Shown here piece after piece: positions 48,594 through 56,285 of a stretch of 64,000 nucleotides of DNA (within the stretch, counting starts at the first letter, position 1; each line of letters starts with the position of its first letter). The notes under the pieces were generated by a model, which ran no database searches, was not told where the DNA came from, and saw nothing but the letters and a program-made list of their open reading frames with translations. Both the position numbers and the translations under genes were made by a program. Location: assembly GCA_964016885.1 (NCBI GenBank), contig OZ024762.1:26660001-26724000 (forward strand). The letters are read 5' to 3'. The stretch is from Eledone cirrhosa. Its lineage: Eukaryota.

Positions 48594-49414
48594 TAAGTAT
48601 GTACACGTACATACATATATGTATACAGACGTACAGTAGTATGTATATATATATATATATAAATACATGCACACATATATACCTGTACGTATGGATTCAC
48701 CGAACATTTATTATAATGCTCGATGTGTTTGTAAACAAACATCCCCTATTAAGCCGTAGTGTCTCGCAACCATTTTTGCTCGTTTGTTCAACACTGACAA
48801 AGGAACGTTGTACTAGTTTCAAGCTTATTAGCTATCGTCAGCAACGTATACCTTCCTGCCAGATTGTTGAACGTATATACTTACCTTATGCATATTAACG
48901 TCTGAGTAGCCCAATTTGCATATCGAGTGGGTCAATCGGCCGGGTGCACCGAAAACGATAAACGGAAAAAATTAAACGAAATTTCTTTTCCCACTCTTAG
49001 TACGGCTGTTACATAAATATAAGTATGTACACGTACATACATATATGTATACAGACGTACAGTAGTATGTATATATATATACATACATGCACACATATAT
49101 ACATGTACGTATGGATTCACCGAAAATTTATTATAGTGCTCGATGTGTTTGTAAACAAACATCCCGTATTAAGCCGTAGTGTCTAGCAACCATCGTTGCT
49201 CGTTTGTTCAACACTGACAAAGGAACGCTGTACTAGTTTCAAGCTTATTAGCTATCGTCAGCAACGTATACCTTCCTGCCAGCTTGTTGAACGTATATAC
49301 TTACCTTATGGATATTAACGGCTGAGTAGCCCAGTTTGCATATCGAGTGGGTTAATCGGCCGGGTGCACCGAAAACGATAAATGGAAAAAATGAAACGAA
49401 ATTTCATTTCCCAC
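48594..49414 (-). mobile_element. Retrozyme-like array, family B2: two ~420-bp units with HHRs at 48805-48847 and 49225-49267
   Basis: acgttg-CTGACGA-t agct aata agct t-GAAA-cta-GTA-caacgt; period 420. Confidence 0.88.
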
Positions 49415-49717
49415 ATCCATATTCACATTTACATTCACATTCACATATATGTGTGTGTTTGTAAATGTGTCTGTTGACATCTGGAATATAGCTTAAGAGA
49501 AATTTGAAGATAATAATATGATAGTCACCCAATATTGTTAACTGGTCTATCGAATTCTTTTGGACTTTGTCACTCTAAATATAAATTATAGCTTTAAAGA
49601 ATTAGCTTTTAATGAATTCCCTTTTTATCAACCAATGTCCTCTACCCATCCCACTCCCCACCCTCTCCTACCACCTGAAAAGACCTATATATATACCACC
49701 TTTATTTTTGGATACCC

Positions 49718-49768
49718 AGATTCCTGATGAGTTCTAAAGAATGAAACAGTTCTAGTCCTGTAGAATCT
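49718..49768 (+). ncRNA. Type I hammerhead ribozyme in a PLE-type 3' end (49560-49852)
   Basis: agattc-CTGATGA-gttc taaa gaat-GAAA-cag ttctagtc ctg-TA-gaatct; degenerate minus copy at ~44055-44108. Confidence 0.88.
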
Positions 49769-49870
49769 CAACTATATTAAAATTTTTATACTCTGCTATG
49801 TATTGAGCACCTTACTTATTGTGGTTACCTCCGATTCAACCCGGAATAACGTATATATATAATATATATA

Positions 49871-50909
49871 TTATATATAACTTTGATAACTTTGATAAAT
49901 TTGATAGGTTTCGGCCAGTATTGGCCCAGGACATGTCTAACTTAATAGCACCACCTGACGAAGTCTTACAAATCAGTGTTTGGGTACCATGGCCCACTCG
50001 AGCAGAGAGTTATTGTTTACGGAGGCATATCCGGGTGTAGGAGGCTTATCCGGGATTTCTTGAAGGAATTTATCCAAAGACTTCTTGAACTTGATGGGGT
50101 CTGTCTCTGCTTTGATGTGTTTTTGTGTAATGTTAAAGAGTGGAGGGCCAATTGAAGTGGAATAATTGTGCCGTATTGTTGTTATGTGATGCGAGTGAGA
50201 TTTTTGTCATGGGCGGATAGCACGGAGCCCAAGCCTTGGGTGTACACTAAGGGTGATGCCAACATCATTTGGGCAAAGCTGATGGAATATTTTCCACATC
50301 ATACAGATAATGTAGCGCACACGGCGACGTTGAATAGAATATAGTTTGAGCTTGTCTAATCGACTCCAATAGTCAAGGCCTGTCATGCCAACTATCTTTT
50401 TTGTAATTGACCTTTGGGGTGCTTCAACTTTCATGATACTTTGTTTCGTGTGGGGTGACCACAGTGGACAACAGTATTCAAGGTGGGGTCGGGTAAAAGT
50501 GGAGAAGAGAAGGATAACAGTGTGGATAGCTCTCGTCTGGAAAGTTCTAAGAATCCAGGAACACATTCTGCGAGCCATATCAACTTTGCTGTTTTTATGA
50601 GTGGCCGAGCTTATGTTGTCCACAATTACTCCCAGGTCTCTGATGTTATTGGATGCCACTAGAGTTTCACCTGAAGGAAGAGAATATGGTAGTTTCAGGG
50701 CATCCTTTTTTCCAAAGTGCATTAATTCAAATTCATCATCATTCAACAGCCAACAGCATATTATTCATCTCTGCACATTGGATAACAGCCAGTAGGTCTG
50801 ACTGAAGGCAAGTCCAGTCACCCGCCTCCTTGATTGGAATCAGCAGATTGGAATCATCTGCGAAGATTCTGATGTTGGTGTGCTTGATGATGTCAGTAAT
50901 GTCATTAAT
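49871..50909 (-). pseudogene. CR1-group LINE 3' fragment
   Basis: [57 protein letters not shown]; 3' hairpin ggccaatactggcc plus short tatcaaa(g/t) tandem tail. Confidence 0.88.
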
Positions 50910-51189
50910 ATATTTATATATATATATGTATATATATATATATATATATGTATATATATATATATATATATATATATATATATATATATATATATATATA
51001 TATATATATATATATATATATATATATATATAAATATTATATTATATATATAATATATATATATAAATATATATTGTATATATAATATATATATATATAT
51101 GTATATATATATTATATATATATATATATATATATATATATATATATATATATATATATATATATATATATATATATATATATATATAT

Positions 51190-53601: not shown

Positions 53602-54126
53602 ATATATATATAATATATATATATATATATATTAGAAAGTGAGGTTTTTTTTACAAAATGAAAAATAACCGAGGTGTCCTACACGAGTGAAAGTTTAAAG
53701 AAAAAAAGATTAAATCGAAAATGCAACTGTAGTCGTATTTTTAAAACAATATATATTTTGTTTTAAAAATAAGACTCCAGTTGCATATTCGATTTCATCT
53801 TTTTTTCTACATATATATATATATAGTATAATAATCGACTATCGAAAAATCGGCGCACGAGTTCACGATAAACAAAATTCGAAATGAGCGGCAGAGGGCT
53901 CAATAATTCAGATAAATCAGAGCTATAACTATCGGTAAAATACCGTCACACATTGAACATGTCAACAATCAACCATACGACCGAAAAATTGCGATACGGA
54001 AGATTCGGTACACTCAGATAAAATATCAATAAATCAATAAATCAAATGAATGATATATATAATATATATATATATATATATATATATATATATATATATA
54101 TATATAGATATATATATATATATATA

Positions 54127-54805
54127 AACGGAAAAAATGAAACGACATTTCATTTCCCACTCTTAGTACGGCTGTTACTTAAATATAAGTATGTACACGT
54201 ACATACATATATGTATACCGACGTACAGTAGTAAGTATATTTACAAACACACCGAGCATTATAATAAATGTTCGGTGAATCCATACGTGCATATATATAT
54301 ATATGTGTGCATGTATGTATATATATATATATACATACTACTGTACGTCGGTATACATATATGTATGTACGTGTACATACTTATATTTAAGTAACAGCCG
54401 TACTAAGAGTGGGAAATGAAATATCGTTTCATTTTTTCCGTTTATCGTTTTCGGTGCACCCGGCGGATTAACCCACTCGATATACAAATTGGGCTACTCA
54501 GCCGTTAATATGCATAAGGTAAGTATATACGTTCAACAATCTGGCAGGAAGGTATACGTTGCTGACGATAGCTAACAAGCTTGAAACTAGTACAGCGTTC
54601 CTTTGTCAGTGTTGAACAAACGAGCAACGGTGGTTGCTAGACACTACGGCTTAATACGGGTTGTTTGTTTACAAACACACCGAGCATTATAATAAATGTT
54701 CGGTGAATCCATACGTGCATATATATATGTGTGCATGTATGTATATATATATATACATACTACTGTACGTCGGTATACATATATGTATGTACGTGTACAT
54801 ACTTA
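54127..54805. mobile_element. Retrozyme-like family B2 insertion with short inverted arm; HHR plus at 54556-54598
   Basis: acgttg-CTGACGA-tagctaacaagctt-GAAA-cta-GTA-cagcgt; period ~430. Confidence 0.88.
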
Positions 54806-55014
54806 TATATATATATATGTATATATATATATATATATATATATATATATATATATATATATATATATACATATATATATAAATATATATATATATATAT
54901 ATATATAGTAATAATAATGAATTTGAAGACTAAAATCCAATTTATTTTAATAAAAAAAAAAAAAAAAAAATATATATATATATATATATATATATATATA
55001 TACATATATATAAG

Positions 55015-55613
55015 ATATGGAAATTCTCTGGATTTCCACTCTTTGGATTGGTAAAACCGTCCGTAACATCAATGGGAGAGGTGAGTATTTAAATCGTTTT
55101 TTAATTTGTTTAAAAAACTGTTTGATAATTGCTTGCTCCGCTCATTTGTATAGTTCTGTTATCTCAAACTAGTACCATCGAACCACAACTATTATAAATA
55201 CCTTGCATATTTCTATAGGTACCTAGTGCGTGCTGGAATATCCATACCCTTTTATGATTTTTCTCGTTATCTAGGGAACAAACGTTGTATCGGGACTGCT
55301 ATTTCTAGTGGCATGATCCACAAGTTTATAATAACCAGCTTTTACTTGTGGCCTAATTTTGGTGAGTGTCACTTTGACGGCTTGACCGCATGCGTTGGGC
55401 AGGAAGCGGAATATTGACTTACTATGAAATTTGCACCCTTATGGTATGGAAATAAGCTGTCTGAAGATCTAATTCTTTCCATTGGAAATTATATGGGTTT
55501 CCAATCTTTGGATTGGTGAACCCGTCCGTAACAGCAATAGAACAGGTGATTATTTAAATAGTTTTTTAATTTATTTAAAAAACTATTTGATAATTGATTG
55601 CTCCGCTCATTTA
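55015..55613 (+). repeat. ~465-bp unit with ~130-bp diverged terminal redundancy in (TA)n
   Basis: tggaaatt...ctttggattggt...ccgtccgtaaca...tgctccgctcattt at 55018-55148 and 55483-55612. Confidence 0.7.
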
Positions 55614-56077
55614 TATATATATATATATATATATATATATATATATATATATATATATATATATATATATATATATATATTATATATATAACATATATAT
55701 ATCATATATATAATATATATTTATATATTATATATATATATATTATATATATATATATATATAATATATATATAATATATATATTATATATATAATATAT
55801 ATATAATATATATATAATATATATATATTATAATTATAATATATATATAATATATATATAATATATATATATATATATATATATATATATATATATATAT
55901 ATATATATATGTATATATATATATATAAGTATTATATATATATAATATATATATATATTATATATTATTATATATATATATATATATATATATATATATA
56001 TATATATATATATTATATATATATATATATTATATATATATATTATATATATACTTATATAAGTATATATATATATA

Positions 56078-56285
56078 AGTTTGTTTACAAACACACCGAG
56101 CATTAAAATAAATGTTTGGTGAATCCATACGTACATATATATATATATGTGCGTGCTTGTATGTATATATATATACATACTACTGTACGTCTGTATACAT
56201 ATATGTATGTACGTATATATACTTATATTTAAGTAACAACCGTACCAAGTCTGGGAAATGAAATTTCGTTTCATTTTTTCCGTTT
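56078..56285 (+). mobile_element. Family B2 3'-terminal fragment
   Basis: Ends gggaaatgaaatttcgtttcattttttccgttt(AT)n. Confidence 0.8.

Follow-up and report, generated by a model that had tools for sequence, protein, structure and literature searches.

The 64-kb window analysed here (64,000 nt of Eledone cirrhosa, positions 26,660,001 to 26,724,000 of contig OZ024762.1, assembly GCA_964016885.1; coordinates below are those of this stretch) contains several insertions of a short tandem repeat, family B, whose units carry a hammerhead ribozyme motif, and raises the question of how an element without a coding frame came to be written into so many places. The sequences argue strongly that family B is a non-autonomous retrozyme mobilized by Penelope-like elements (PLEs). 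On balance they also favour the view that this non-coding tandem hammerhead element was written by a PLE endonuclease and reverse transcriptase (RT), probably from circular RNA. The two-armed, two-site PLE anatomy on which this reading is built goes beyond the preliminary description of the locus, which had centred on a covarying hammerhead, and is a stronger signal than covariation.

We examined a core-selected sample of 55 loci (69 fetched, 14 overlapping loci dropped; insertions of at least 100 bp), which held 65 insertions, 36 with one arm and 29 with two. The 94 arm 3' ends fell mostly on two sites, S1 (40 ends) and S2 (37 ends), with 17 elsewhere and none at the hammerhead cut site. S1 corresponds to positions 266-274 of the B2 monomer and S2, blurred by TA, to positions 210-222; together they occupy 22 of 420 positions, lie 52-59 nt apart and are distinct from the cut site. 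The ends are also coupled, as 20 of the two-armed insertions combined S1 with S2, four S1 with another end and five S2 with another end, whilst none combined S1 with S1 or S2 with S2. A second sample of 82 loci, all on one contig (C1), was chosen by the S1 end and not by the core; it comprised 22 of the 30 loci of an S1 junction list (eight overlapping loci dropped) and 60 further regions from that list, and 79 loci gave matches. Here 36 insertions were S1+S2 and six S1+other, three lay at a locus edge and one, in a complex locus, was apparently S2+S2. Genome-wide, TA junctions numbered 3,238 at S1 (B2-type pattern), three at the cut site and seven at a control site with longer TA microhomology. 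The arms face outward and join at dispersed 5' ends, often with an overlap of a few bases, and TA microhomology of 3-5 nt marks the outer ends. Because the element is flanked by (TA)n at both ends, target site duplications are unreadable; this AT-rich, microsatellite target was recovered in the core-selected set, whereas it holds by construction in the S1-selected set.

Two fixed 3' termini, a tail and an inverted 5'-truncated copy constitute the 'tail' signature of PLEs: an inverted truncated copy is often present in their insertions, as is a tail at one of the ends (Craig et al. 2021, PMC8557442). In the Poseidon element PAc, the tail is set by two internal sites, both downstream of the hammerhead cut, at which RT starts; both strands of AT-rich DNA are nicked and extended, and the cut site is free of ends (Frangieh et al. 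2024, PMC11167929). Family B resembles PAc in its two-site starts, its tail, the extension of both strands at AT-rich DNA and a cut site free of ends; PAc, however, encodes its own protein and has a tail of 30-40 nt, whereas B has a tail of 52-59 nt, TA microhomology of 3-5 nt and multi-unit arms (PMC11167929). We favour PLE machinery because the fixed, coupled S1/S2 ends match both the two-site priming of PAc and the inverted-copy-plus-tail anatomy of PLEs, and because RT-coding PLEs of the same genome are built alike. One of these, at 38122-42486 of the window, lies in (TA)n and is two-armed, its ends separated by a 60-nt tail; it has hammerheads at 38378 (minus strand) and 42292 (plus strand) and a 1038-aa RT plus GIY-YIG frame (38681-41797, minus strand), whose product has RT/GIY-YIG neighbours in the Atlas and in Pfam gave a sub-threshold RVT_1 match alone. 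The RT-coding PLE family G (L276, L277, L280, L286 and L287) shares with B a U.U stem II base and a palindromic 1-bp stem III, and its copy L287 has two arms whose ends are separated by a tail of about 40-45 nt. Non-autonomous Chlamys elements (such as MRC1) likewise share with B multicopy head-to-tail units, an inverted 5'-truncated copy, a tail and microsatellite targets, but their 3' end resembles that of their autonomous partner and they belong to clades without a canonical hammerhead, whilst B has a hammerhead and no partner was found for it (PMC8557442).

A partner PLE with a pseudo-long terminal repeat (pLTR) homologous to B was not found in the window, in some 240 loci that were retrieved or in the 50 loci chosen for their GIY-YIG matches, the last from a search in which 150 of 10,597 candidates were scored and 30 loci plus 20 longer regions inspected. 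The picked loci held several families of PLEs with a C-terminal endonuclease, none with a B-like pLTR. Several candidates were rejected: L054:3950-6900, a mirror-image composite with a B arm linked on either side to a GIY-YIG fragment, is interpreted as a nested insertion that was re-mobilized; L240 reads as a decayed relative; and family G and the 1038-aa family have their anatomy, but not their sequence, in common with B.

All five places at which the preliminary description had put family B do hold it. The features of these insertions are as follows.

48594..49414, minus strand: one-armed B2 insertion of about two units, with its 3' end (left) at S2 in (TA)n and its 5' end truncated at monomer position 237
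48811..48841, minus strand: hammerhead core made up of CUGACGA, stem II, GAAA, palindromic stem III and GUA; cleavage is predicted between 48811 and 48810
49231..49261, minus strand: hammerhead core in the one-armed B2 insertion
51190..52219, minus strand: B1 left arm of 2.2 units, 3' end at S2 in (TA)n
51442..51472, minus strand: hammerhead core (CUGAUGA) in the B1 left arm
51547..51562, minus strand: octamer-containing motif ATGCAAAT
51912..51942, minus strand: hammerhead core in the B1 left arm
52213..52597, plus strand: B1 right arm, 3' end at S1 in (TA)n; meets the left arm head to head, the two overlapping by 7 nt
52259..52289, plus strand: hammerhead core in the B1 right arm; its extended stem I domain (52228-52314) folds at z -3.36
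54127..54252, minus strand: B2 left arm, 3' end at S1 in (TA)n
54240..54805, plus strand: B2 right arm, 3' end at S2
54562..54592, plus strand: hammerhead core in the B2 right arm, the sole core of 54127-54805; the domain folds at z -3.44
56079..56287, plus strand: B2 arm covering monomer positions 71-273, ends at S1, no hammerhead
15820..16096, both strands: short two-armed B insertion, S2 arm on minus and S1 arm on plus, no hammerhead

The two-armed B1 insertion (51190-52597) thus holds three cores, and the last two entries are fragments without one. In the B2 insertion at 54127-54805, a minor lineage allele is common to both arms and occurs in all three copies of that position.

Measured from cut to cut, the B1 monomer is 470 nt (a correction of the 469 bp given before) and the B2 monomer 420 nt, within the range given; the two are 73% identical (194 of 265 positions, ribozyme and microsatellite excluded). 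Pattern matching returned 24,001 exact family B cores in the 3.0-Gb genome and none for the reversed control pattern, so the repeat is no product of chance. As 64 of 107 cores were exact in a B2-biased sample, extrapolation from that sample suggests a total of about 40,000. With six exact cores, or about 94 per Mb, the window is about 12 times denser than the genome, which averages about 8 per Mb. The high copy number predicted from its five insertions is borne out, as is the retrozyme-like nature of the family: the units of B are short, non-coding and arranged in tandem, each of them carries a type I hammerhead, and they are dispersed and abundant; B has no RT plus GIY-YIG open reading frame of the kind found in an autonomous PLE. 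It is not, however, an unrelated second lineage, since it aligns along its full length, also outside the ribozyme, with family A (12550-14801; 57-60% identity) and is therefore its sister. Family A is itself two-armed and has a 469-nt unit; in its hammerhead, stem II starts from a canonical G-C pair and the triplet is GUU.

The metazoan non-long terminal repeat retrozymes described by Cervera and de la Pena (2020, PMC7229834) have units of 150-450 bp, and share with B non-coding tandem type I hammerhead units, low GC content, tens of thousands of copies and a predicted self-paired circle. Family B, known here from its DNA sequence, differs in a slightly longer unit (420-470 nt), in combining two weak hammerhead features in one ribozyme and in opposed arms with S1/S2 ends in (TA)n, a feature absent from the available text of that paper. 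For retrozymes, Li, Clavereau and Pollet (2026, 10.64898/2026.07.22.740005) pointed to the same mobilizing class, with co-occurrence with PLEs as in our genome, but their case is built on this co-occurrence and on pLTR homology, and ours on insertion anatomy, with no homologous pLTR found; they leave the mechanism of mobilization open. In the open-access literature we found no description of two-armed S1/S2 retrozyme insertions, although subscription papers and supplements may hold one.

The family B ribozyme is a type I hammerhead, with the CUGANGA core, GAAA, an NUH triplet and an open stem I, and gave no Rfam match at the gathering score. Stem I is long and interrupted, the base of stem II is U.U, and stem III is a single base pair closed by a palindromic loop, such that B has neither the canonical G10.1-C11.1 pair nor a stable monomeric stem III. 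We regard it as a non-canonical hammerhead rather than a non-member because both variants are known in dimer-cutting axolotl retrozymes: the palindromic 1-bp stem III is that of HHR_Amex1 and the U.U base that of HHR_Amex2, and axolotl retrozymes, which carry each of these weak features, cleave better as dimers (PMC7229834). The ribozyme domain folds on the sense strand (z -3.4) and not comparably on the antisense strand (z -0.6 and -1.8). The predicted lowest-energy fold of the monomer has core CUG paired with the loop of stem III and is 1.4-2.1 kcal/mol more stable than the core-open fold, and C3-U4-G5 are predicted to be paired more than 80% of the time; between two units, the stem III palindrome could form a 6-bp duplex of -4.8 kcal/mol. 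The predicted circle is self-paired, as in known retrozymes, with sense z scores of -11.6 (B1) and -4.3 (B2) against -4.3 and -3.1 for antisense (25 shuffles each), values inflated by the microsatellite hairpin.

Selection on this ribozyme had been proposed from stem I variation that preserves pairing and from a core that varies only at a tolerant position. The stem I strings occur as quoted, although B2 has a T.T mismatch as its outermost pair and 'caacgt' occurs in one window copy (core 48811-48841); within the window the core does differ at N7 alone, but loop II varies too. Covariation within family B is weak and amounts to one wobble flip, a single stem I pair that changes at the lineage level (U.G in 47, G.U in eight and other in six of 61 loci). 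Lineage variants fell on 0 of 11 core positions, 4 of 69 positions of the ribozyme domain and 22 of 228 elsewhere (p=0.47), and rare variants in inserted copies were about as frequent in the core (1.46%) as elsewhere (1.80%, p=0.50); the copies decay neutrally, and B alone is therefore no proof of selection. The claim fares better between families. We compared 13 hand-picked, related haplotypes from B, A, C (a close relative of A) and D, a 310-nt family (L031:5902-6017, L062:216-331) in which the base of stem II is also U.U and the loop of stem III is palindromic but differs from that of B. All 11 core bases are invariant, 88% of cells pair and the stem III loop is always palindromic, whilst 12 of 19 pairs change on both sides, a count reached by 0 of 500 shuffles, which is no probability because the rows represent three or four lineages. 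The predicted fold is thus well conserved across the sister families A, C and D, which supports selection at that level.

What was copied can be read from the arms. Fifty-one of 79 S1 arms continue past the cut site, so one cut monomer could not have supplied the template, and 99 of 101 unit junctions across that site have native length. Arm 5' ends are not concentrated there (5 of 123 within 6 nt, 3.5 expected), and genome-wide starts show no enrichment, with 110 at the cut site and 104 at a control site; on inspection, about 20 of 30 of the former and 13 of 20 of the latter proved true. In 45 of 46 insertions the two arms differed less from one another than from the median other arm (3.1% versus 6.9%), a comparison in which B1 values are inflated by coordinate mapping and two 'mixed' cases are low-identity intermediate types. 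Young arrays carry 0-3 substitutions per unit, most of what separates one unit from another is symmetric C>T and G>A decay, and 265 of 289 heterogeneous positions are changes in a single unit. Variants shared between units occurred at 24 of 6,051 multiply covered positions, 15 of them in L057 and the others in L032, L060, L101, L116 and L122. The seamless junctions and matching arms indicate a template that was continuous through the cut site and of one sequence, either a circle or an uncut homogeneous multimer. Ligation scars common to all units were not found, cut-site indels being single-unit in comparable arrays (L200, L203, L206, L212 and L216). RNA-editing scars were rejected, as array-wide private variants showed no A>G bias (3:2 of 18) and the unit-specific sense-strand excess was weak (48:26 pooled; 27:18, p=0.37, and 19:8, p=0.08, when split). 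S1 arms have a median length of 415 nt, with 11 of 79 exceeding 710 nt; with arms truncated at about one unit on average, array length would have to be regenerated. At the other extreme, an arm of family C (L143-L172, G000:C1:5738324-5752446; the family has 4,248 pattern matches) carries 31 cores of 466-nt units, with one core in the opposite arm and 19 distinct units among the 29 read.

The second form of template, a linear uncut multimeric transcript of a donor array copied by the same PLE machinery, with cutting slow or unneeded, is in our view unlikely, yet end and junction counts fit it equally well, and several points weigh against a PLE-written circle. About half of the insertions (36 of 65) are one-armed, and none of the 50 loci picked by GIY-YIG holds a PLE that shares sequence with B. 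The ribozyme, with its U.U stem II base, 1-bp stem III and paired core CUG, may be weak, and selection on it is not significant within B. In PAc, hammerhead mutants insert unaffected and uncut RNA is the main substrate (PMC11167929), and of nine Xenopus retrozymes one cleaved and eight did not. Finally, arrays L057 and L101 contain alternating unit types, and the second arms of L060 and L116 have variants of only some first-arm units, patterns not expected from a single monomer circle; they may reflect dimeric templates or else subsequent duplication and conversion, and for L057 local tandem duplication is plausible. The unprocessed RNA used by PAc, the weak-looking ribozyme with its predicted blocked monomer fold, these unit variants and the weak A>G excess all suit an uncut multimer. 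Against it, arms as short as those observed would make arrays shrink each generation unless some step restored their length, the 31-core arm of family C would need an uncut RNA of about 14 kb, the core is invariant across four families and most heterogeneous positions are confined to one unit. A circle is favoured because length would have to be regenerated, and because of the family C arm and the conserved core.

A cut linear monomer, with tandem arms produced by template jumping at the cut site, is very unlikely. About two-thirds of 30 inspected matches are true 5' starts at the cut site, L208 resembles a jump, and 5 of the 56 S1 arms that reach the cut-site zone stop there, against an average hazard of 0.04; but the control site gives as many starts, arms are not mosaics of unrelated copies, and the seamless junction counts largely refute it. 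Least probable of all is a DNA-level satellite or fold-back element spreading by recombination in TA tracts, its hammerhead a relic, for although the insertions are palindromic, the unit contains a microsatellite hairpin, copies decay neutrally and L057 may have duplicated locally, the outer ends are fixed and coupled whilst the inner junctions are dispersed, folding is strand-specific and RT-coding PLEs have the same anatomy.

For a circular template copied by a PLE, we envisage the following course. A B array would be transcribed, possibly from an internal promoter containing the octamer, and two hammerheads would pair through their palindromic stem III and excise a monomer. A host RtcB-type ligase would circularize it, and the predicted slipped fold, in which core CUG is paired, would prevent the lone circle from recutting itself. 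The PLE protein would then nick both strands of (TA)n and prime cDNA at S1 on one and at S2 on the other, and both cDNAs would go round the circle for variable lengths until their 5' ends joined, often by short microhomology. More tentatively, a PLE dimer may load one 420-470-nt circle, prime both strands from it and roll round, with the palindromic stem III acting as a switch by which the ribozyme cuts in multimers and is self-blocked in the circle. If so, tens of thousands of traces of rolling-circle target-primed reverse transcription would be preserved in the genome, a process that, in the retrozyme and PLE literature available to us, has been proposed and not shown. Both PLE mobilization and tandem cDNA from circles have been proposed in print, and the movement of animal retrozymes is stated to be open (PMC7229834; 10.64898/2026.07.22.740005). 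Elements of this kind form a large repeat class in this genome, and B yields base-level predictions: cDNA should be primed at two sites, insertion should target TA, copying should not stop at the cut site and each insertion should derive from one template. These predictions could be tested in the published in vitro PLE assay with a circle against a linear multimer.

In B1, B2, C and most A units the octamer-containing motif precedes the cut site by 111-131 nt; the octamer is absent from family D, and the motif may be a promoter element. Newt satellite 2 has a small nuclear RNA-type promoter, for which a literature search gave nothing relevant.

Words of B1 occurred in sequencing runs of 15 coded organisms and one wastewater metagenome, with no RNA run among those listed, but horizontal transfer of B is unsupported. 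Among seven runs examined, X2 held B1 and a neighbouring unrelated repeat, both very deep and host-like, X4 mainly the neighbouring repeat, and X6 and X16 B1 at trace depth; B1 was not found in X1, X7 and X23.

The window also contains LINE-like retrotransposon frames at 25950-30676 and 5483-6847, which we take from their motifs to be gag-like, endonuclease and RT-like; the three frames tested gave no Pfam match. Several copies of another PLE-like family, with a 648-aa frame and presumably Hydra-like by its motifs, lie at 17953-22107 and 35976-37500, and the copy at 17953-19899 has a hammerhead-like motif near its 3' end. Further type I hammerhead motifs, belonging to unrelated families, are present at 22450, 24088, 49724 and 57660.

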